A stretch of 59,283 nucleotides of DNA, filler included, from 7 parts of 7 records of this genome joined end to end with filler, not necessarily neighbours in it; one strand, 5' to 3'. Shown: positions 857-12,797, counted from the first letter of the whole stretch. Program-made: numbers and translations. Notes: generated from the sequence alone by a model not told the origin.

Positions 857-2104
857 CTAACCTGTTTTGATTTTTGAGCGGTCCAGGGGCGTTCCGTCCC
901 AGGCGGCGGAAAGCACCATCATGCAGTCGTCGAAATCCAGGTCCTCGGGGTTGTAAAAGATGGTGCCGTCCCCCAGGGCCGTTGCCGCGATGGTTTCAAT
1001 GTCCGGGCCGGTTATGGCCTGGCGTCCCTGGGGATCCTTGACCTGGCTGAAGCAGGTAAAATGGCGTCCGTCCGTGGCGTCATACAGGTCCTGGTTCAGC
1101 TTGCGGATGGCGGCGATGGCGGCCGTGGCCCGGTCCCGGGGGCGGGTGGTGGCATAGGCTTCGCTGCCGGCCAGGGGAAAAAGCAGTTCCGCGACTTTCT
1201 CCTCGATCTTGTGCAGGTTGTACTCCAGGCCGTAGGGCAGGAGGATGGCCATGCAGGTGCCGTGGGGCACGTGGCAGACCGCCCCCACCGAGTGACCCAG
1301 GGTGTGGACCATGCCTACCGTTGAGTTGGAAAAGGCGATGCCGGCCAGGGTGGCGGCCGTTGCCAGGGCCAGGCGGCCTTCCCGGTCGTCCGGCTGCTTG
1401 ACCACGTTCACCAGATGGGTGCGGATCAGCTCGATGGCCTCCAGGGCGTGGGCGTCGCTCAGGGGGTTCTTGGACAGGCAGGTGTAGGCCTCCACCGCAT
1501 GGGCCATGGCGTCCATGGCCGTTGCCGCGGTGATATGGGGGGGCAGGGTCAGGGTCATCCGGGGGTCGACCACGGCGGCGTCCGGCAGCAGAAACGGGGA
1601 CCCAAAGAGCATTTTTCGCTTTGCTTCATGGTCGGCGATCACGGCGGCGACGGTGACCTCGGAGCCGGTGCCCGCAGTGGTGGGAACGGCGATCAGGGGC
1701 TTGAGCTTCTTTTTCAGGGCATTGGCCCCGGTGAAGGCCATGAGATCGTCGGAGTCTTCGGAGACGAGGATGTTGACGCCCTTGGCCGTGTCCAGGACGG
1801 AACCGCCGCCCACGGCGATGATGGCGTCGCATTTGTGCTCCCGGTAGACCGAGGCCAGGCGGTTCACCACCTTGACGTCGGAATCGGGGGGCACATCGTC
1901 CTCCACCGTTCCCGGGGTGATGCCGCCCTCCATGGCCGTTATCACGGTATCCACAAGCCCGGCTCCGCTCACGCCCTTGTCCGTGATGATCAGGGGCGTT
2001 CGGGAACCCATGTCCGAGAGCAGCGCCGGTATCCGCTCCAGGGTCCCATGGCCCGCGACTGTTTTCACTCCGCAGCAGAATTCATAGTATTCAGGTACGT
2101 ACAT
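857..2104 (-). CDS. Iron-containing (type III) alcohol dehydrogenase
   Basis: GGGSVLDTAK and PTTAGTGSEVT motifs; metal ligands intact (DAMAH, HTLGH, VPHG). Confidence 0.95.
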   Translation of the reverse strand: MYVPEYYEFCCGVKTVAGHGTLERIPALLSDMGSRTPLIITDKGVSGAGLVDTVITAMEGGITPGTVEDDVPPDSDVKVVNRLASVYREHKCDAIIAVGGGSVLDTAKGVNILVSEDSDDLMAFTGANALKKKLKPLIAVPTTAGTGSEVTVAAVIADHEAKRKMLFGSPFLLPDAAVVDPRMTLTLPPHITAATAMDAMAHAVEAYTCLSKNPLSDAHALEAIELIRTHLVNVVKQPDDREGRLALATAATLAGIAFSNSTVGMVHTLGHSVGAVCHVPHGTCMAILLPYGLEYNLHKIEEKVAELLFPLAGSEAYATTRPRDRATAAIAAIRKLNQDLYDATDGRHFTCFSQVKDPQGRQAITGPDIETIAATALGDGTIFYNPEDLDFDDCMMVLSAAWDGTPLDRSKIKTG

Positions 2105-3287
2105 GGCGGTCTCCTTTTTTCATGGGGGTTCCGGAATGGGCATGGGCCAGGATGGCCATGGGGCAATCCGTGGTCATCCGCTCCAGGGTGCTGCGGCTGA
2201 TGCCGGCATCGTCAAGGGTTCTGGGGATGGCGGTGTCGGAGCGCCGGAACAGGCCGTTGATCAGCTGCCGCAGGATCGATAGAACATGGTCGAACCGCTG
2301 TTCTTCGGGGGTTGCGCAGTAGCGGTCCAGGCCGGCCAGGGGCAGGAGCAGGCGTTCCATGGTTTCCGGGGCGTTGCCGGACCGGTACTCGAGCACGGCG
2401 GGCAGGAGAACACCCATGAGGACGCCGGGATTGACCGAGGAAAACTCCCCAAGGGTGCGGCCCATGGTCACCGTGATCAGGTCATCGCAGTTGGAGAACA
2501 CATAGCCGGAGATGGCGGCCGCCATTGAAAGTTTGGCAAAGGCCTTTTCATTGGTTGACCCCCTGGAGAAAAACCGTTTTTGCCTTGCGGGGGTGAAAAA
2601 GGGCTCAAGGCAGGCCTCGAGGTTCTCCATGATAAGGGAGATGGCCGTGGCCGCATAGGACCGGATTAGGGGATTGGCCGTGGTCCCGTGGGCCTCCGTG
2701 CAGCAGGCCAGGGCGGCCAGGGCTTCGCCGGCCACCGCTTCCAGGGAGTCCCGGGCCATGAGCCGGGGATCGATCACCACCTTGTCCGGCATGAGAAAGG
2801 GCGACGAATAGGAGAGGGCGTCCAGGGCGGCCTCGCCTGCGGTTTCAAACCCGGAGCTGGTCCCCGAGGGGATGTAGATGAGGGGGTTGAGGTGTTTTTT
2901 GATCTTGCCGTTTCCCGCCAGGGTCCTGAGGTTGCCCTGGGGCTCGGAAACCGCGATGTTCAGCACCTTTGCCACATGGGCCACCCGGTGGGTGCCCAGG
3001 GCCAGGATGGCGTCAAACCCCTTGTTCTGGTAGAGGGTGGTGAGCTCCCGCACGGTATCGATGCCGGAGGTGCCGTTGATGGAGTCAACCACGCCCAGGG
3101 TCATGCCCGATTCCCGGAAGGCATTGACCACATGGTCGGTTCCCTTTCTTTGGGTGATGGATTTGCTGGTGATCACCAGGGGTTTTTGGGCACCCAGGGC
3201 CGTAAGATCCGCAGGGAGGTGCTCCAGGGCGATTTTTCCGAAGCCGGTGGTGCACCGGCACAAAAATTCAATACTCGCTGGGTTCAT
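2091..3287 (-). CDS. Iron-containing alcohol dehydrogenase homolog with degenerate NAD- and metal-binding motifs
   Basis: Probable start MNPASIEFLC at 3287 (upstream extension in ORF track overlaps the next gene). Colinear with the neighbouring ADH but key motifs are replaced. Confidence 0.85.
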   Translation of the reverse strand: MNPASIEFLCRCTTGFGKIALEHLPADLTALGAQKPLVITSKSITQRKGTDHVVNAFRESGMTLGVVDSINGTSGIDTVRELTTLYQNKGFDAILALGTHRVAHVAKVLNIAVSEPQGNLRTLAGNGKIKKHLNPLIYIPSGTSSGFETAGEAALDALSYSSPFLMPDKVVIDPRLMARDSLEAVAGEALAALACCTEAHGTTANPLIRSYAATAISLIMENLEACLEPFFTPARQKRFFSRGSTNEKAFAKLSMAAAISGYVFSNCDDLITVTMGRTLGEFSSVNPGVLMGVLLPAVLEYRSGNAPETMERLLLPLAGLDRYCATPEEQRFDHVLSILRQLINGLFRRSDTAIPRTLDDAGISRSTLERMTTDCPMAILAHAHSGTPMKKGDRHVRT

Positions 3288-3304
3288 TCTCTTTGGGCTC
3301 CTTT

Positions 3305-3835
3305 TTAGTAACCGATGAGGGTCCGTGCGTTGACCAGGATGCGGTCGATGACATGCCGTTTCAGGGACCAGCGCGGATATCGCTTGATGGCGAGTTTGGC
3401 GATGAACTTGGGCAGCAGGTAGACCTGGACGATATCCAGGATCCTGACCACGGCACAGGCATGGGGCACATCGCCCTCCACAAAGAGGCGGCTCCGGGCG
3501 TTTGAAACCGGGGTGCTCTCCTGGAAGGTGAACAGCAGGAACAGGGCCTCGACGCTCTTGAGGGTCATCCAGAGGTCGATGGTCTTGTCCTTGACGGTGT
3601 GGCCCAGGTACTTGACCCGGCCGGCGTCGTCCTTTCCCACCACCATCCAGGGGCCGTTGGGAAAGGCGCCCAGGGCAAAGGAATACCCGTTGGGCAGCTC
3701 CTCGAACTCCTGCTTCACCCGTTTGTCCACCCGGGCCGATGCCTGGACCGCCCTGCCCACAAACCAGAGCATTAAGTTCAGGTAGATTCGCTTCAGGGGT
3801 TGCCCTTTGGGCGTGATTTCGACAAAATCCTCCAT
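3305..3835 (-). CDS. Hypothetical protein, possible SCP2/sterol-carrier-like fold
   Basis: 176 aa with RBS GAGGAGG; first gene of the ADH/AOR operon. SCP2-like pattern (RLFVEGD) is an inference. Confidence 0.7.
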   Translation of the reverse strand: MEDFVEITPKGQPLKRIYLNLMLWFVGRAVQASARVDKRVKQEFEELPNGYSFALGAFPNGPWMVVGKDDAGRVKYLGHTVKDKTIDLWMTLKSVEALFLLFTFQESTPVSNARSRLFVEGDVPHACAVVRILDIVQVYLLPKFIAKLAIKRYPRWSLKRHVIDRILVNARTLIGY

Positions 3836-3941
3836 TGCAGCCTCCTCTGTATTTGGATGAACTAACTATTGGTTCCGCTTGCCCTAGGATTGTTTTACAG
3901 CATCCGGGTCGCAACGCCGTGATCGGCCAGGTGACTGAATG

Positions 3942-3970
3942 AGAATAGAAATATCTTTGTGCAATGTCAA
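3942..3970 (-). promoter_or_regulatory. Sigma70-type promoter for the SCP2-like/ADH/ADH/AOR operon
   Basis: Minus strand TTGACA-N17-TATTCT about 105 nt upstream of ATG 3835. Confidence 0.6.
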
Positions 3971-4324
3971 GTCTAAAGAATGATGACTGTTTTTTTGTCG
4001 GGAACACCGTTCTATCGTCACAAGGATTGCCTTGAAAGATAACTTTTTTTCCACAGTGCATGATGGAGAGCGTGCATATTCGGGCGCAATGGGCCGGACC
4101 ATACGGGTATTTTTATTCCATTTTGATTTAATGTTACTGTTTTATCCCCTCCCGTCATCTTGTGCATGATTCTTGCCTTTTTATTTTGAATATCTGGTTT
4201 TTGACGCTGTTTCATCTCGAGCCGTAACGAAACAGCGTTTCTTGCATCATGACAATGGGTGATTTTATGAGTTGTTATGGTGCATTGGTTTTTTAACCAT
4301 TACCAAAAATAAGGAGGATGGAAA

Positions 4325-4907: not shown

Positions 4908-4950
4908 GTGACCTGCGGTGGAAATCCCTCCACCGCAGGTCACTTTTTTT
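4908..4950 (+). terminator. Intrinsic terminator between convergent PEP-CTERM and TonB receptor genes
   Basis: Perfect 15-bp stem GTGACCTGCGGTGGA/TCCACCGCAGGTCAC followed by T7. Confidence 0.85.
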
Positions 4951-4963
4951 ATGGGCTGAACGT

Positions 4964-7024
4964 TTAAAAGGCCAGGGTGCCGGAGATGCCGGCGGTCACG
5001 CCGGGCATGTCATACCCGTAGCGAAGCTGGTAATCCCGGTCGGTGACGTTGTTCACGTACCCCTTGAGGATGAACTCGCAGTCCCGGGGCAGCTTGAACC
5101 TATGTTCCGCGCCGATGTTGACGATGGTCACGTCATCCATGCGGTCGTCCTGCTTGGAGTAGCGGCGGCCCATGTAGTTGGCGTTGAGCTCCACCACCCC
5201 GTTTTCCCACAGCTTGTAGGCAAGGCCCAGCACCACCCGGTTCTTGGGCTGGTTCTGGAGCAGGTAGTGGGTCTCCTCGGTGTCCATGGGATGGCTGTCG
5301 GCATCCCAGTCCTGGAAGGTGTAGGATAGATATCCGCTCAAGTCGTTCCGGAAGTTCCGGGACAGCTCAAGCTCCAGGCCGTATACCACCATGTCGATGT
5401 TGTAGACAAGGGCTGCGGGCTCTGCCTGGATATAGTTGTGCTGCTGGTAATCGGTTATGTCCTGGTAAAACGCGGCGGCCCTGAACTTGGTGTCCTTCAC
5501 GATCTCCTTGACGCCGCCTATTTCATATGTCCATGAGGTTTCTGTTTTTAAATCGGGATTTGCCTTTGCGTACTCTTCGTTGGACCCGGCCCGGGCCCAT
5601 CTCCAGATGTCTCAGACTCAGGGGAGACGCATTTCACGGCTCACCGCCGCATAGAGGGCAAGGGTGTCATCCACACGATAGTCCAGCCGTGCCTTGGGGC
5701 ACCACTCCTCTTCCTTTCTCCGGTCTTTTTCCAGGGGGGTGGTCCCGAACACAAAGGAATCGCTCTCAAATTTGTACCACCGGGTGCCAAAGGTGAGGGT
5801 GAGCTTGGGGTTCAGGGTCCAGACATCCTGGAGATAGAGGGAGGTGATGGAATAAAAATCCTTGTTGTCCGTGGTGCCCTGGTCCCGGTAGTCCCCCCCG
5901 GCGGAAAGGGCGTGGTTTGGAAACAGGTCCACATCCAGGTAATCCAGGGAAAGGCCGCCGGTGTACTCCTTCTTGTAATTGCTGGTGTCGGAGCCATCGG
6001 CGAGATGGGCATACCGGGTGCGCTCGGAGATCTCCTTGTAGGCCATTGCCCGCACCACCCCCAGGCTCAGGGGCTGTTCAAAGAGCAGGCTCTGGGAGAG
6101 GTACTCCTTGTCCCATTCGCTCCTGCCGCCGTCATAGCATTTGCCCTCGAAGTCATGGGTGAAGGTGTCGATCTCGTCTTTTCGCACGATGGGATAGTCG
6201 GGATCGTAGTTGGAGGCGGGATCGTCCGGATCGTTGATCACCGCATACCCGGTCACGGTGTCGATATATTCGGCCCCATAGGTCAGGGTGCCGTTGGTGG
6301 GCAGGTAGAGGGAGATCCTGCCGGCGACATTATCGGTGTCATAGTCGTTGCCCCGCAGGTAACCGTCTCCCTCCCGGTGGCCGGCGGCAAAGGAGTAGCC
6401 GATGGTGTTGAAGGCGCCGCCGTTGACATTGGCGCTGTAACTCTGGTCTCCGTAAGCGCCCATGCCCACCTTGACCGATCCGTTGGGCCGTGGGTCATCG
6501 GTCTGTCTGCCTTTTTTGGTGATGATGTTGATGGCGCCGCCCATGGAAAAGGGGTAGAGCAGGGAGTGACTGCCCCGGATCACCTCGATGGTGTCCACGT
6601 TGTCGATGGGCAGGGTGGTCCAGTCCATCTTGAAATAGCCGTGGCTGCCATGGAGCCGCATGGGGCGGCCATCCATGAACACCTGGTACCGGGACTGGTC
6701 CATGCCCCGGATATAGACCCCCTCGGACTGGCTGGGGGTGGAAGAGGAGCGAAGCACGTTCACTCCCAGGGCCTGGTCCAGAAGATCCGTGATGTTCTCG
6801 ATCTTGCCCGGTTTTTTGAACTGATCCACATTGATCACCGTTACTTCGGGTGTCACCACCATGGATTCTTCCCGTAACGGATGATCCCGTACAATGACCT
6901 TGTCCAGTCGATAGGTTGATTGTTCCGTGTCCGGATCAACCCCGGCAAGGGCCTGGAACGGTATGGCACCGAGTAACAGGCATCCTGCGACAATGACAAG
7001 GCAGATGGTTTTAATGGCTCTCAC
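4964..7024 (-). CDS. TonB-dependent outer-membrane receptor (about 686 aa) with two in-frame TGA codons; probable selenoprotein (UxU)
   Basis: GTG start after AAGGAG; signal peptide; plug motifs (YIRG, IEVIRG, GGAINIITKK). ORFs 5618..7075 and 4964..5500 are in the same frame, joined by RLP-TGA-V-TGA-DIWRWARAGSNEEYAKANPDLKTETSWTYEIG. C-terminal Phe present. Confidence 0.88.
5581..5599 (-). promoter_or_regulatory. Candidate bacterial SECIS hairpin
   Basis: UGGGCCCG-GGC-CGGGUCCA: 8-bp stem with G at first loop position, starting after a 12-nt spacer following the second TGA (5612-5614). Confidence 0.7.
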
Positions 7025-7216
7025 AATACACATCTCCTTTCTCAAGTTAAAAGCATAGAATTCAAGGGTTGCCACATAAGAGAAAGGGTCCGGACAGGCC
7101 TTGTCCCGTCAGGGCGGGGGCGTTTATCCCCGCCACGCGATTGACGGCCCAAAGGCGCTGTGGTATTGGACAGAAGAATCCCCCCTTATCAAGGAGGGGC
7201 CATGGGGGAAGCAGCG

Positions 7217-7279
7217 TCAGTACTTTAGCGGGTGCCGGCTGCTTTCCCCAGCTCTTTCCTCTCTCTGTTTTTCATTCAC
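7217..7279 (-). CDS. Putative leader peptide/uORF (20 aa; 51 aa to TAA at 7124 if TGA is read through)
   Basis: Full SD AAGGAGGTGA (7290-7299) 10 nt before GTG; MNEKQREERAGESSRHPLKY-TGA-RC... Confidence 0.3.
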   Translation of the reverse strand: MNEKQREERAGESSRHPLKY

Positions 7280-7315
7280 TTCCTGTTTATCACCTCCTTG
7301 CAACGGGATTTACAC

Positions 7316-7369
7316 AAAAAAAAAGCCACAAAGACAACTCACCCGTTTTCGGGTGAAGGCCTTCATGGC
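7316..7369 (-). terminator. Terminator/attenuator hairpin in the TonB receptor leader
   Basis: GCCATGAAGGC..TCACCCG-AAAA-CGGGTGA..GTCTTTGTGGC followed by a T run; no same-strand gene lies upstream for it to terminate. Confidence 0.7.
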
Positions 7370-7663
7370 ATGATTCCAGGGTATTGCTCGATTTTTGCTT
7401 TACTACACATGCAACTTCTTGTCGCAATTCACGTTTCCTCTTACTAGGTTACCGCATTTGTGTCAACAGATAATTCGTGATTATCCGTTTGATAAGGGGG
7501 GAAAAAAGTGTTAAAGAAAATAGATCCTTTTTGCTCATTTCTTTTTAACATATTGCAGTGGCGAAAGTGGCAACGAGACCATGGTTCCCGGCATTGGGAC
7601 GTCCCCTGTTACGCATTCCCCAATCCAGGGCGAACCGACAATTCAAAATCAGGGAGGTTTGGA

Positions 7664-8776
7664 ATGCAGATCGATTTCCATCACGCAGTAACTTATGTTG
7701 CAGCACGGCTGGCACGGTTTTCAGTGGAGGATGCCAATCTTATCAGCTATTCGGCCCAGTATGTGGACGACGCGGTGAATTCGGGGACCATCCGATTCCG
7801 GAACAAGGCCATGTACAGCCGGATCAGTTCGGCCCACAAGATGCTGGATTACCGGAATTTTGAGGAGCTGGCCAACCATTTCACCTGGGTGCCCTTCCAT
7901 TTTCTGCCGGGCAACGGCGGAAAACAGGCGGGTGACAGCCCTGCCGGCGGTTTTGTCAACAAGCTGGTCTGTACCCCGGATTCACCCGTGGCAAAGGAAA
8001 TGGTGAACTCCTGCATCGCCTGCCATGACATGGATTACGGGTTGCACCGGCTGGGAATCACCATGCATGTGCTGGCGGACACCTTTGCCCACCAGGGATT
8101 TGCCGGCATCAATCACGAAATCAATGAGGTGGAAGACCTGGAGAAAGAGGACGGCGATCCCAGAAGTCTTATCGGGAAACTGGCGGACTATTTTGGTGAT
8201 GTTTTTGATACGGTGAAGAACAAGGTGGTCAGTGACGCCTTTCCCCTGGGCCATGGCGGCGCCCTGACCTGTCCGGACCTGCCCTTCCTGAAATGGAAGT
8301 ATAAAAATGGGGCAGGGAAGCCGGTGGTGCGGGATAACACGAAAATTTTCATGGATGCCGTTGAGAGAATCCATGAAGCCATGGTTTGCTTTCGGGAGAA
8401 GGATCCCGATTACATCCTGAAGGCGGAGGACCGGATCTCCCCCCGGGACCTGGCCAAGATCCGGGAGAATTTCCTCGATTTTGAAGATGAGGAGGGGGAA
8501 GACCGGCACAGGAAATGGGTGGATTCCATTGCAAACGGCGATTTCAGTTTTGCTGAAAAGGGCCAGGAAACCCTGTCCTATGTTCACAAGGGCATCAATT
8601 CCTGGAAGCATGAGGCCCTGGATACGAAAAAGGAAGTGGAAACAAAAAACGAGCTGTTCCGATTCTCCCCTGAATTCCTCGACAGTGACTGGAAGCAGTT
8701 CCACGACGCCCTGCAGATCCATCGGATCGATATCATCAGGAACATTCTCCCGAAATACGGCATCTGCGTGGCGTGA
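7664..8776 (+). CDS. Hypothetical protein, DUF6765-like, possible Zn-dependent phospholipase C/nuclease-like fold
   Basis: ATG 7664 after GGGAGG; MQIDFHHAVTYVAARLA, SAQYVDD, WVPFHFLPG, HRLGITMHVLADTFAHQGF. Family assignment from recall, not searched. Confidence 0.7.
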   Translation: MQIDFHHAVTYVAARLARFSVEDANLISYSAQYVDDAVNSGTIRFRNKAMYSRISSAHKMLDYRNFEELANHFTWVPFHFLPGNGGKQAGDSPAGGFVNKLVCTPDSPVAKEMVNSCIACHDMDYGLHRLGITMHVLADTFAHQGFAGINHEINEVEDLEKEDGDPRSLIGKLADYFGDVFDTVKNKVVSDAFPLGHGGALTCPDLPFLKWKYKNGAGKPVVRDNTKIFMDAVERIHEAMVCFREKDPDYILKAEDRISPRDLAKIRENFLDFEDEEGEDRHRKWVDSIANGDFSFAEKGQETLSYVHKGINSWKHEALDTKKEVETKNELFRFSPEFLDSDWKQFHDALQIHRIDIIRNILPKYGICVA

Positions 8777-8874
8777 CCCCATGGGCGACTAGAGCGTTTT
8801 ACCCGCAATATCCGGAAACACGGACGCTCTATTTCTCCCGGGGTTTAACTTTTTTTGCGGAAAAGAGGTGTGGC

Positions 8875-11343
8875 ATGTACGAAAAGACAGATGAAGTAAG
8901 AGACCAACTCAAGGCGTATACCCCCGGAAACATGAAAGAGAAGCTTCCGCTTCTGGACACCCTGCTGGGACTTCACCGTACTGAGAAAGCCGCCGTTGAT
9001 ATTGAAAGGGCCTGGCATATGACGGCCCATTTTAAGGAAACCGAAGATCGGGAGATCCCCATGCCGGTGAGAAGGGCCCAGGCCGTCAGCCGGTATCTCT
9101 CCCGGCGAAATATCTATTTTCATGACGACAACATGCTGGGGGGGGCCACCACCGATAAAGCCCTGGGTGCACCCCTGTATCCCGAGTTCTTCGGGTTGAG
9201 CATCTGGCCGGAGCTGGGCACGATCAGCACCCGGAAAGACAATCCTCAGTTCCTCAGCAGGGAAGATGCCGATCGTCTCAATTTCGAGGTGTTTCCCTAT
9301 TGGATGGAAAGATCCATATCCGAGGAGGTCCGAAAGGTGGACCCCTACCGGCAGGCGCTGCTGGAAAAGATGATCATCTATACCGTCTCCAAGGCCGCCA
9401 CCATTTCCCATACCACCCCCTGTTATGAGCTGGTCCTTCAGAAAGGGATCAAGGGCATCCTGGAAGAGGCCATTCAAAAGCAGGCGGAACACGGGGATGA
9501 CGATGAAAAGGCTGTTTTTTATCACTCTGTCCGGATCGCCATGCAGGGCATTCTGGATTATGCCGCTAATATCGCAAGGAAAGCGGCCCAAAAGGCGGAT
9601 GAAGAGACGGACCCGGAACGGAAAAAGAATTTCCGGCGCATTGCCGAAAGCTGTGAACGGGTGCCGGCCCACCCGGCAACGACCTATCATGAAGCCGTGA
9701 ATTCCCTGTGGATCTGCCAGGTCGCCGTGTTTGCGGAAAACTCCAACATGGCCATCAACCCCGGTCGCCTGGATCAGATCCTGTACCCCTATTTTATCCG
9801 GGAGTATGAATCCGGCGCCCTTTCCATCGAGGAGGCGTTGAATATCACCGGGTCCCTGTGGTTCAAGATCGCCGATAATGTGAACCTTGTGCCGGAAGCC
9901 GCGGAACGGCTGTTCGGAGGGGCGGGGGCTGTGCCCGCTGTCACCCTTGGCGGTGTGGACAGGGACGGCAACGATGCGGTCAATGAACTGACCTATCTTT
10001 TACTGAAAATCACGGAGCTGCTGCCCATCCGGGATCCCAATGTGAATGCCCGGTTTCACCCGGAAAAGAATCCCGTTGAATATCGCAATGAGGTGAGCCG
10101 GGTGATCCTGACCAACAAGGCGATACCCGCTTTTTTCAATGATGTCGAGAACATCAAAACCCTTGTCAACCAGGGGGAAACCCTGGCCCATGCCCGGGAC
10201 TATGCCGTGATCGGCTGTGTGGAGCTGGGCAGCCCGGGCAGGGATTACAGCGCCAGTTCCTCCATATTCATGATGATGTACACCATCCTTTACATGGCGC
10301 TCCATAACGGCCGTACCCTGGTGACAGGGGACTCGCCCCTCTGGAAGGCCACGGGCGATCCTGGAGACTTTACCGATTTTCAGCAGTTCTGGGCGGCCTA
10401 TGCCGAGCAGACACGGCTCATGGCGGAAAATGCGGTTGTCCTGAACAATACCTATGGCGAAAAGCACCAGGCGTTCCTGCCCACCCCGTTGTTGTCCGCC
10501 ATGTTCAAGGGCCCCATGGACAAGGGCAAAGACCTGATTGACGGCGGGGCGGTGTATAATTCTTCCGGGGTGACCCATATCGGTTTTTCCGATGTGTGCG
10601 ATTCCCTCTGCGCCATCAAGGATATCTGTTTCAATGAAGACAACACCGATATGCGCCTCACCCTTCCGGAGCTTGTGCAGGCGGTGGACAATGATTTCAA
10701 GGGGCATGAAAAGCTTGCCGCATACCTGAAAAACAAGGCGCCCAAGTACGGCACCGACCATCCCGTTGCCGTTGATATCTCCCAAAGATTGATTGAACTG
10801 GGATATGAGGTGTTCAACGGCCGGGAGAATTATCGCGGCGGCAATTACCGGGTCGCCTACTGGACCATGACCAACCATGCCGGGTACGGCAAAGTGACCG
10901 GGGCCCTGCCCAGCGGCAGAAAAGCCCATGTGCCGTTCTCAAGCGGCATCACCCCGGCGTCCCAGATCGACACCCCGTTGACAACGAGCCTGGATGCCGT
11001 TGCCGCCCTGAACAGCAAGCAGACCCCCGGGGCCTATGCCCTGAACATGAAATTTTCCCCCGTGACGTGTTCCCCGGAAAATGCGGACCGGTTCGGAAGC
11101 ATGGTTCAAGCCTATATGAACAACGGCGGCCAGCAGGTCCAGTTCAACATTCAGGATTATGAGACCTTGAAAGAGGCCAGGGATGACCCCGGCAGTCACC
11201 CCCACCTGCTGGTGAGGGTGTCCGGGTATTCCGCCTATTTCAAATCATTGAACCGGGCGATGCAGGACGAGCTGATCACGCGAAGCCAGTACAACCTGTC
11301 TTCCGGTGAATTTGTCCCCTTAATCATCCGGAAAGGAGTCTGA
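8875..11343 (+). CDS. Glycyl radical enzyme (PFL2/eliminase-like, substrate unknown)
   Basis: Cys loop YAVIGCVELG, Gly loop LLVRVSGYSAYF, GRLDQILYPY; ATG 8875 after GAGG. Confidence 0.93.
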   Translation: MYEKTDEVRDQLKAYTPGNMKEKLPLLDTLLGLHRTEKAAVDIERAWHMTAHFKETEDREIPMPVRRAQAVSRYLSRRNIYFHDDNMLGGATTDKALGAPLYPEFFGLSIWPELGTISTRKDNPQFLSREDADRLNFEVFPYWMERSISEEVRKVDPYRQALLEKMIIYTVSKAATISHTTPCYELVLQKGIKGILEEAIQKQAEHGDDDEKAVFYHSVRIAMQGILDYAANIARKAAQKADEETDPERKKNFRRIAESCERVPAHPATTYHEAVNSLWICQVAVFAENSNMAINPGRLDQILYPYFIREYESGALSIEEALNITGSLWFKIADNVNLVPEAAERLFGGAGAVPAVTLGGVDRDGNDAVNELTYLLLKITELLPIRDPNVNARFHPEKNPVEYRNEVSRVILTNKAIPAFFNDVENIKTLVNQGETLAHARDYAVIGCVELGSPGRDYSASSSIFMMMYTILYMALHNGRTLVTGDSPLWKATGDPGDFTDFQQFWAAYAEQTRLMAENAVVLNNTYGEKHQAFLPTPLLSAMFKGPMDKGKDLIDGGAVYNSSGVTHIGFSDVCDSLCAIKDICFNEDNTDMRLTLPELVQAVDNDFKGHEKLAAYLKNKAPKYGTDHPVAVDISQRLIELGYEVFNGRENYRGGNYRVAYWTMTNHAGYGKVTGALPSGRKAHVPFSSGITPASQIDTPLTTSLDAVAALNSKQTPGAYALNMKFSPVTCSPENADRFGSMVQAYMNNGGQQVQFNIQDYETLKEARDDPGSHPHLLVRVSGYSAYFKSLNRAMQDELITRSQYNLSSGEFVPLIIRKGV

Positions 11344-11344
11344 A

Positions 11345-11878
11345 ATGGATTTTGTAAAGTCAATTGAAGGGCTGTCGGGAAAGATGAGAGAATCGTTGAT
11401 TCAAAAAGAGCTGAAGGGGCTTAAGGCCGAGATAGAAACCGAAGTCGCCGGAGAAGCCCTGGATAAACTGCTCTATCTGCTGCTCAAGGCCATGGGCCTG
11501 CTGTTTATTGTGGATAAAGAGTATCGAAAGAACATCAAGGATTTTACCGCCACCTATGTGATCTGCAGCCAGGACAAAAAGATCGATGTCTCTGCCATAT
11601 TTAAAAAGATCAATGGGATATTTTCCGAAAAAGACGGCATGGAGGTCAAGGACACCATTGTTGAAAACCCTACCACCACCGTGACCTTCAGGGATGGCAA
11701 GGCAATGGCCGAGTTTCTGCTCTCCGGGAATCCCGATGTGATTGCCGGGATGCTCGACAACCAGTTGAGTGTGTCGGGCAATTTGAATTACCTGTTCAAG
11801 TTTGTCTACCTGCTGTGGCTCATCCCGGAATTGCTGGGAATCAATGATTTCAAGGAGCTGTTGAGTCATCAAACCTGA
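11345..11878 (+). CDS. Hypothetical protein with SCP2-like C-terminal region
   Basis: Starts 1 nt after GRE stop; TVTFRDGKAMAEFLLSGNPDVIAGMLDNQLSVSGNL resembles the SCP2 C-terminus (inference). Confidence 0.7.
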   Translation: MDFVKSIEGLSGKMRESLIQKELKGLKAEIETEVAGEALDKLLYLLLKAMGLLFIVDKEYRKNIKDFTATYVICSQDKKIDVSAIFKKINGIFSEKDGMEVKDTIVENPTTTVTFRDGKAMAEFLLSGNPDVIAGMLDNQLSVSGNLNYLFKFVYLLWLIPELLGINDFKELLSHQT

Positions 11879-11885
11879 CGTCACA

Positions 11886-12697
11886 ATGGAGATGCCGGAA
11901 CCACTGATTTTCGATATTGCCCGGGGATCTTTTGTTGACGGGCCGGGCATCAGGACCACGGTTTTTTTCAAGGGCTGTCCCCTGTCGTGTCCCTGGTGCC
12001 ATAATCCCGAATCCCAGGCTTACACCGCTGAAACCCTGTTTTTCCCGGAAGCGTGTATCCAATGCGGCAATTGTGACCAGGGCAAGGAGTGCTTCACCCT
12101 TGCCCGGCGCACCATCGGGAAACCCTTGCCACCGGAACAGTTGATCGAGATCCTCCTCCGGGACCGGGCCTATTATGAAAACTCCGGGGGCGGGGTGACC
12201 TTTTCCGGGGGGGAAGCCCTGGGCTTTCCCGGGTATCTCTCCCGGGTGATTCCGGCATTGAAGGCGGAAAAGATTCACGTTGCCGTTCAGACCTGCGGGT
12301 ATTTTGACTTCAACGCCCTGGACGCGACCATCCTGCCCCGGATCGATCTGTTCCACTTTGATCTCAAGATCATGGATGACGGGGACCATACCCGCCTGCT
12401 CGGCAAATCCAATCATATCATCCTTGAAAACTTCCGCCGGCTGCTTGACCAGGGGTGCCATGTGCAGCCTCGGATTCCCCTGATTCCCCGTTTTGTGGCC
12501 AACCGGAAAAACCTTGACGCCCTGGCCCGCTTTCTATCACAGCACCGGGTGGGCCGGTGCGAGTTCCTCTATTATAACCCCGCTGTCCGGGGAAAATTGA
12601 TCGGCCTCAATCGCGAACCGGTTGAGGGACTGCCTGAAGAACCGGTTCCCATGGCTGAGAACCGTGCCTGGATCGATTCCTTCAAGCAGCAGTTCAA
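11886..12697 (+). CDS. Glycyl-radical enzyme activating enzyme (radical SAM), truncated at contig end
   Basis: DGPGIRTTVFFKGCPLSCPWCHNPES, GGGVTFSGGE, ferredoxin-like insert CIQCGNC..C. Confidence 0.95.
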
Positions 12698-12797
12698 NNN
12701 NNNNNNNNNNNNNNNNNNNNNNNNNNNNNNNNNNNNNNNNNTTAATTAATTAANNNNNNNNNNNNNNNNNNNNNNNNNNNNNNNNNNNNNNNNNNNN
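12698..12797. other. Artificial contig spacer
   Basis: N44-TTAATTAATTAA-N44. Confidence 0.99.

Follow-up and report, generated by a model that had tools for sequence, protein, structure and literature searches.

Can a gene interrupted by two TGA codons only one codon apart still encode a working outer-membrane receptor? The question is raised by the window analysed here, a stretch of DNA of 59,283 nt, filler included, in which seven parts of seven records of one genome are joined end to end. One frame of its minus strand (7024..4964) encodes a complete TonB-dependent receptor of 686 amino acids (aa), broken only by the codons TGA-GTC-TGA (5620..5612). A sequence-only reading had explained the pair by selenocysteine (Sec, U) rather than by two nonsense mutations. 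The analysis makes it very probable that this is a functional transporter gene of the NCBIfam family NF049944, that both UGAs are read as Sec with the help of one hairpin of the SECIS type (selenocysteine insertion sequence), and that the resulting P-U-V-U-D motif opens extracellular loop L7.

Two in-frame TGA codons in a receptor gene

The minus-strand codons at the site are ATG CGT CTC CCC TGA GTC TGA GAC ATC TGG. Translated with TGA as U, positions 7075..4964 of this strand form a single frame with zero further stops and zero frameshifts, which ends with ...GTLAF followed by TAA; calling of open reading frames (ORFs) with translation table 11 yields two fragments in that same frame (5618..7075 and 4964..5500). 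The product has an N-terminal plug, a barrel of 22 strands in a structural model and a C-terminal aromatic residue (Phe), as is typical of TonB-dependent receptors, and its TonB β-barrel domain scores 142 bits with Pfam. A stretch Y-R-L-D-K-V-I-V-R, conserved in the receptor alignment, resembles a TonB box by eye. The sequence-only reading had described one frame with TGA-GTC-TGA as its sole interruption and with plug, terminal Phe and signal peptide intact; this description is accurate, the signal peptide being judged by eye.

Scanning of one genome per species retrieved 22 related loci, all titled Desulfobacterales, Desulfobacteraceae, Desulfosarcina or similar, and including the complete chromosomes of Desulfosarcina widdelii (locus L004) and D. 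variabilis (L008). Comparison of these loci places the TGA pair far beyond chance, because TGA-x-TGA occurs at the homologous site in 20 of the 22, down to ∼56–60% identity. In 18 of them the whole match is read through with exactly two TGAs and zero other stops; L015 and L019 likewise have two TGAs and no other stop once each is read in its one correct frame (712 and 700 aa). Two loci were dropped from the motif count, namely L020, which is masked exactly at the site, and L022, a fragment that matches receptor residues 529–643 only. This fragment (L022:3001-3345) lies isolated inside a longer contig of the same assembly as L016 and may be a gene remnant. The motif reads P-U-[VI]-U-D-[IL]-W-R-W-A in all 20 informative loci, with Val as the middle residue in the window and in L001–L003 (P-U-V-U-D) and Ile in the other 17 (P-U-I-U-D).

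An explanation of the locus by a pseudogene, by an error of sequencing or by two distinct genes can practically be dismissed. Such an explanation can point to gene calling, in that table 11 splits the gene and public gene calls shorten its homologues. A search of a protein collection with residues 380–703 gave 28 matches, among which no full-length close homologue was found: the 18 closest (51–92% identity) are all 467–477 aa long and match no more than the stretch that precedes the first TGA, and the remaining 10 show 23–33% identity over proteins of 505–794 aa. The sequence-only reading had foreseen that standard pipelines would miscall the gene, and the 18 stubs stopping at the first TGA are what it led one to expect. 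The explanation is countered by 20 independent assemblies that have both TGAs and no other defect, and by a C-terminal part that is as conserved as the N-terminal part: identity to the window after the TGAs (residues 472–686) is at least as high as before them (30–468) in 11 of 15 comparisons, so that the decay of the downstream half, named in the earlier reading as a sign against Sec, is not seen. Moreover, the modelled 22-strand barrel could not close without its last nine strands, and contigs from three further public runs cross the TGA site with no change at 5612–5620 among the differences listed. Comparison of the loci thus indicates that the receptor gene is intact and not a pseudogene. 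A contig of run X8, an RNA library, crosses the TGA site with ∼93% identity; it is not taken as evidence of transcription or of the source organism.

The SECIS-like hairpin downstream of the TGAs comprises 8 bp and a triloop with an invariant G as first loop base across 21 sequences, and pairing is kept in 99.4% of 168 cells. Two of the 8 pairs vary on both sides, one being C–G in 13 and G–C in 8 sequences, the other G–C in 11, A–U in 8 and G·U in 2. The covariation score is 0.317 against a shuffle mean of 0.166 and is reached by none of 500 shuffles, and pairing falls to 17–51% when the partner is slid by 1–3 columns as a control. Both UGAs probably lie within the UGA-to-loop distance accepted for bacterial SECIS elements. 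Rfam at the gathering score gave zero matches over the whole window, hence no match to a SECIS family.

The sequence-only reading had also named the sel genes of the source genome as a check. In relatives rather than in the source genome itself, selA, selB, selD and tRNASec were found in all three genomes searched (G001–G003), the first of which encodes a receptor ∼93% identical to that of the window. In each of the three, selA matches at ∼530 bits, the SelB wing domain lies inside a frame of 652–678 aa and tRNASec scores ∼75.5 bits against a gathering score of 47. Their selD genes contain one in-frame TGA (G001:C1124:21989-22912, G002:C33:156-1079 and G003:C1:4839442-4840368), which presumably makes SelD a selenoprotein as well. 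With ARAGORN the window yielded no tRNA, and a scan of it for further frames read through TGA listed candidates, none of which is put forward as a second selenoprotein gene. Collectively, the prediction that both TGAs encode selenocysteine is strongly supported, because the codons are retained in every informative locus, the third of the gene behind them shows the same degree of conservation, compensatory changes maintain the hairpin that follows, the relatives searched possess the Sec machinery and the protein matches a curated selenoprotein family named for the motif. On the same grounds the preference of the earlier reading for Sec over nonsense mutations is upheld, and the homologues, which it had proposed to inspect for TGA at both sites, carry the conserved pair.

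Family assignment, sister types and origin of the motif

The receptor scores 1268.2 bits with NF049944.1 (TonB-dependent receptor, PUIUD motif-type, equivalog; cut-off 850), over positions 4–686 of 686, and the match starts 3 residues past the GTG start. Because of this score, the family and its U-x-U hallmark are to be regarded as already curated, and the receptor is an ordinary member, with the same motif position and the same two Sec residues. The window and its three closest relatives differ from the family in having Val, not Ile, between the Secs and in lacking the usual operon neighbours. Models of the sister types match far less well: 506.8 bits for NF049947 (PCPU motif-type; cut-off 800), 412.1 for NF049946 (CU; cut-off 700) and 271 for NF049945 (FCYXU; cut-off 825).

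In the literature, the paper on deep-Sep describes, for Desulfosarcina sp. BuS5, a selenoprotein that is a TonB-dependent receptor (PMC12013277). This protein, of the FCYXU type (NF049945), likewise comes from the Desulfobacterales; its single Sec lies about ten residues deeper in the loop, whereas the window receptor has two Secs. In the available text of the supplement, ‘TonB’ occurs once only, in the BuS5 row of Table S2, and not in the available per-genome list of predicted selenoproteins, which includes D. widdelii PP31 (PMC12013277); the genome of this strain carries a PUIUD-type gene (L004). The table of a 2026 review, in the portion accessible, gives the FCYXU type NF049945, with C-x-x-U and a single Sec, as its sole TonB receptor, and ‘UxU’ is absent from the accessible text of that review (PMC13188914). 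A full-text literature search for ‘PUIUD’ returned author names only. The di-Sec type is curated, yet it does not appear in the available portions of PMC12013277 or PMC13188914.

The sister types were sampled in 201 genomes of the order. A PUIUD-type gene exceeds the cut-off in 4 of these, each time with two TGAs, and relatives with one TGA occur in 6; the latter comprise three PCPU-type (1208–1287 bits) and three CU-type receptors (979–1115 bits), each with one Sec as against two in the window receptor. In the alignment, C-P-U of the PCPU type and G-C-U of the CU type occupy the columns of U-V-U. The second Sec column is therefore common to the PUIUD, PCPU and CU families, with a Cys partner at i-2 or i-1 in the latter two, and the first Sec position is Cys in the PCPU type. 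A generic paralogue free of in-frame stops has T-A-M at these columns. The C-x-x-U of the FCYXU type (e.g. L027, 970 bits) also lies in L7, about ten residues further in, and has a Cys homologue in L029 (C-E-V-C).

The PCPU family has an equivalent hairpin 12 nt past its single UGA. This fits, without proving it, a course of evolution in which a single base change (TGY to TGA) would have turned C-x-U into U-x-U and the existing hairpin would have been re-used, so as also to serve a UGA 18 nt upstream. Vertebrate selenoprotein P likewise has closely spaced Secs, as U-x-U pairs in its C-terminal tail, and the adjacent C-U of the sister type resembles the adjacent Cys–Sec in the GCUG end of thioredoxin reductase. 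These proteins are eukaryotic, depend on a SECIS in the 3′-untranslated region and have folds and roles unrelated to TonB receptors.

Further peculiarities were seen among the relatives. The CU-type receptors (L034:41-2155, L035:51-2159 and L036:183-2255) contain Cys-rich C-P-D-C-P or C-D-C-P-T-C-P after the signal peptide and before the plug. On the reverse strand of L043, a C-E-V-U receptor adjoins the PCPU-type receptor in tandem. Upstream of the receptor in L015, a second receptor ORF of 505 aa (L015:1544-3058) stops mid-barrel.

Loop L7 and the surroundings of the gene

An AlphaFold2 model built from 16 sequences (mean predicted local distance difference test, pLDDT, 65.9; predicted template modelling score 0.69) has 22 strands after the plug, strand 13 comprising residues 455–465 and strand 14 residues 496–509. 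P-U-V-U-D opens the 30-residue loop between them, right after the RxP box, and counting of strands from either end places the motif, with medium confidence, at the start of extracellular loop L7. With Foldseek, the matches are ordinary TonB-dependent receptors (Fiu, PqqU, YncD, BtuB and FecA; template modelling scores 0.58–0.67). Profile alignment to solved chains sets P-U-I-U-D-L against A-P-S-L-L-Q-L of Cir and T-P-T-I-N-E-L of YncD; because of this alignment, the Secs appear to replace the Ser/Thr and the variable residue of a motif seen in both proteins.

The sequence-only reading had located the motif between the FRAP and NPNL boxes and had connected these boxes with haem receptors. Modelling, which it had suggested, agrees with the location at medium confidence, and the motif falls in L7. 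The connection with haem does not hold: Cir, the colicin I receptor, a catecholate and non-haem receptor, has the same RxP and NPxL boxes, which are therefore not specific to haem receptors. In receptors of the ShuA and HemR type, these boxes flank a loop as they do in the window receptor, and a haem-coordinating His lies in the FRAP–NPNL region (PMC3792355). No His occurs between the boxes here, in U-V-U-D-I-W-R-W-A-R-A-G-S-N-E-E-Y-A-K-A. An assignment as haem or haemoglobin receptor was rejected for this reason and for the scores, 110.7 against a cut-off of 316.85 for TIGR01785 and 102.8 against 323.75 for TIGR01786.

Table 1. Features of the receptor locus, in coordinates of the window
Feature	Position	Strand	Details
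Receptor selenoprotein coding sequence (predicted)	4964..7024	-	686 aa; GTG start, TAA stop, C-terminal Phe
Shine-Dalgarno-like AAGGAG	7034..7039	-	9 nt ahead of GTG start at 7024; read directly
Signal-peptide-like N-terminus	6944..7024	-	MRAIKTICLVIVAGCLLLGAIPFQALA; 27 aa ending ...QALA; translation judged by eye
Plug domain, residues 60-163	6536..6847	-	Pfam PF07715, 62.9 bits
First in-frame TGA, Sec469 (predicted)	5618..5620	-	translation and orthologue conservation
Second in-frame TGA, Sec471 (predicted)	5612..5614	-	translation and orthologue conservation
SECIS-like hairpin UGGGCCCG-GGC-CGGGUCCA	5581..5599	-	12 nt past second TGA, 18 nt past first; also encodes W-A-R-A-G-S
Predicted extracellular loop L7, residues 466-495	5540..5629	-	strand count in model; MRLP box to NPDL box
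15-bp GC-rich hairpin, T-run on + strand	4908..4943	+	between convergent receptor and PEP-CTERM genes; terminator match on + strand only

In the window the receptor gene stands alone, flanked by a convergent gene for a PEP-CTERM protein and a divergent DUF6765 gene; the surroundings in L001–L003 are similar. The hairpin at 4908..4943 may also serve the minus-strand receptor gene. Farther out lie genes for two Fe-alcohol dehydrogenases, an aldehyde:ferredoxin oxidoreductase and a glycyl-radical enzyme with its activase.

Conserved neighbours were counted over 20 loci. A protein with the TP_methylase fold is encoded within 3 kb of the receptor in 16, and as the next gene on the same strand in 14; a DUF4198 protein is found in 10, ExbB, ExbD and TonB, or TonB alone, in 4 and a nucleoside hydrolase in 4. 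The methylase-fold (e.g. L004:5033-6007, L007:5174-6070 and L021:5260-6174) and DUF4198 proteins inspected have signal-peptide-like N-termini, by eye, and in six of six DUF4198 proteins a His follows the likely cleavage site. The methylase-fold neighbours score far under the cut-offs of all NCBIfam models of corrin methyltransferases, and since a secreted protein would lack S-adenosylmethionine, they may be binding proteins. A search of the ESM Atlas with such a neighbour returned generic TP_methylase clusters only, and a literature search for a periplasmic tetrapyrrole methylase with TonB retrieved nothing related. NCBIfam has no family for the DUF4198 neighbour. DUF4198 proteins are described as binding Ni (dissociation constant 18 nM), Zn and Co and as adjoining TonB receptors (PMC12537917 and PMC12663993).

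Among the PCPU-type loci, L042 has methylase-fold, DUF4198 and nucleoside-hydrolase neighbours, L043 has methylase-fold and DUF4198 proteins together with FecCD, Peripla_BP_2 and ABC_tran, and in L044 Peripla_BP_2 and ABC_tran are the sole ones of these; two of the three loci thus encode parts of an ABC importer of the FecCD type. The neighbours of CU-type loci are different.

No riboswitch was recognised upstream of the receptor gene, and Rfam at E ≤ 1 on 6950–7560 gave only a chance match to mir-207. An element on the minus strand (7316–7466), ∼290 nt ahead of the receptor start and not preceded by any gene on that strand, contains TTGACA (7466..7461) and, ∼90 nt on, a long hairpin (7369..7325) that nine consecutive Us follow (7324..7316). 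Its fold has a z-score of -3.87, it has no Rfam match and in a blastn search of all loci it was found only in three close relatives; it may act as a small RNA or as an attenuator in a leader. On the plus strand, 7508–12749 encodes the DUF6765 protein, a glycyl-radical enzyme resembling pyruvate formate-lyase (856 aa), a 177-aa protein without family and a radical-SAM activase; the pair of DUF6765 and pyruvate-formate-lyase-like genes also adjoins the receptor in L002 and L003. The ORF at 2091–4061 (minus strand) has 656 aa, but its Fe-alcohol-dehydrogenase domain starts only at residue 274 and its counterpart in L001 has 398 aa; the long N-terminal extension is probably not translated.

Possible roles of the selenocysteine pair

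In the mechanism proposed, SelB and tRNASec would decode both UGAs as selenocysteine, directed by the single hairpin that starts 12 nt past the second and 18 nt past the first. The two selenolates (i, i+2) would sit on the same face of an extended segment and together offer a soft bidentate site to a thiophilic metal centre. From sulfidic water, this site would take up either an ion of the Ni, Co or Zn type or the metal bound in a tetrapyrrole or corrinoid, and once TonB moves the plug, the cargo would be handed to binding proteins in the periplasm. The sequence-only reading had proposed that a surface UxU could bind a soft metal (Cu, Ni, Co, Hg) or act as a redox gate, an idea with which gene neighbours in other genomes agree. 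A thiophilic metal or metal-tetrapyrrole is suggested as cargo because the neighbours in more distant members of the family are methylase-fold proteins and the metal-binding DUF4198 proteins. The role favoured here for the Sec pair, a soft site binding such cargo, stays more doubtful than assured. More tentative is the specific proposal that the selenolate pair in L7 acts as a surface clamp which strips thiophilic metals or metal-tetrapyrroles (Ni, Co, corrinoid-like) from sulfidic water.

Several observations weigh against this picture, some of them touching the reading as Sec and others the cargo. The 8 sequences with alternative hairpin pairs may be one clade, in which case as few as one or two events could account for the covariation, and the 101-nt fold in the window alone is unexceptional (z-score -1.27). 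We infer the Sec machinery of the window's own genome from the genomes of relatives, and selenium in the receptor is a prediction from sequence. The confidence of the structural model is moderate (mean pLDDT 65.9, and 55–67 in L7). As regards cargo, methylase-fold and DUF4198 neighbours are missing from the window and from its three closest relatives, and the query used retrieved no methylase-fold protein from G001 or G002. Of 15 loci, a single one has a cobalamin riboswitch, located 2.3 kb downstream of the receptor gene, and no metal-responsive element was identified upstream of the receptor gene.

Most bacterial selenoproteins are redox enzymes, and the main competitor of the metal site is a redox-active diselenide/diselenol, like C-x-x-C or C-U centres, that would carry out thiol/selenol exchange at the surface, e.g. 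for reductive release of cargo or for handling of polysulfide or selenium species. This role is unlikely but deserves consideration: sister families have C-P-U, G-C-U and C-x-x-U pairs in the same loop, and motifs of paired chalcogens are tabulated for many prokaryotic selenoproteins in the accessible part of the recent review (PMC13188914). It is disfavoured by the neighbourhood, where no electron donor or oxidoreductase is conserved and metal-binding or tetrapyrrole-binding folds are commonest. The redox and metal roles are compatible with each other.

Two further explanations concern structure and expression. Diselenides have a lower reduction potential than disulfides, and the pair could be a purely structural cross-link in L7 where a disulfide would fail in a sulfidic, reducing habitat; Cir indeed has two Cys in the aligned L7 segment. 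Such a link is quite improbable, given that between i and i+2 it would close a very small ring that cannot staple a 30-residue loop, that the motif directly adjoins the conserved RxP box and that the partner position varies (i-2 or i-1) around a fixed Sec position. The UGAs could also act mainly as a selenium-dependent switch, giving the full-length receptor only with selenium and otherwise a shortened product, the chemistry of Sec being secondary. It is conceivable that two successive UGAs would make the output depend steeply on Sec-tRNA; as the main function, this is more improbable still. P-U-[IV]-U-D-[IL]-W-R-W-A is invariant or nearly so in the 20 loci, and the Sec position is common to the Cys-partnered sister families, which together argue for selection on the residues themselves.

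For genome annotation, the finding means that gene callers not reading TGA as Sec shorten such genes to ∼470 aa. For the biology of the family, an outer-membrane selenoprotein with two Secs in a surface loop is unusual. If the selenolate pair is a surface clamp for thiophilic metals, one SECIS hairpin would have to recruit SelB twice for UGAs 6 nt apart. The clamp would work in conditions under which sulfide outcompetes ligands of the thiol or imidazole kind, and would represent a ligand-binding, non-enzymatic and extracellular role for bacterial selenocysteine.

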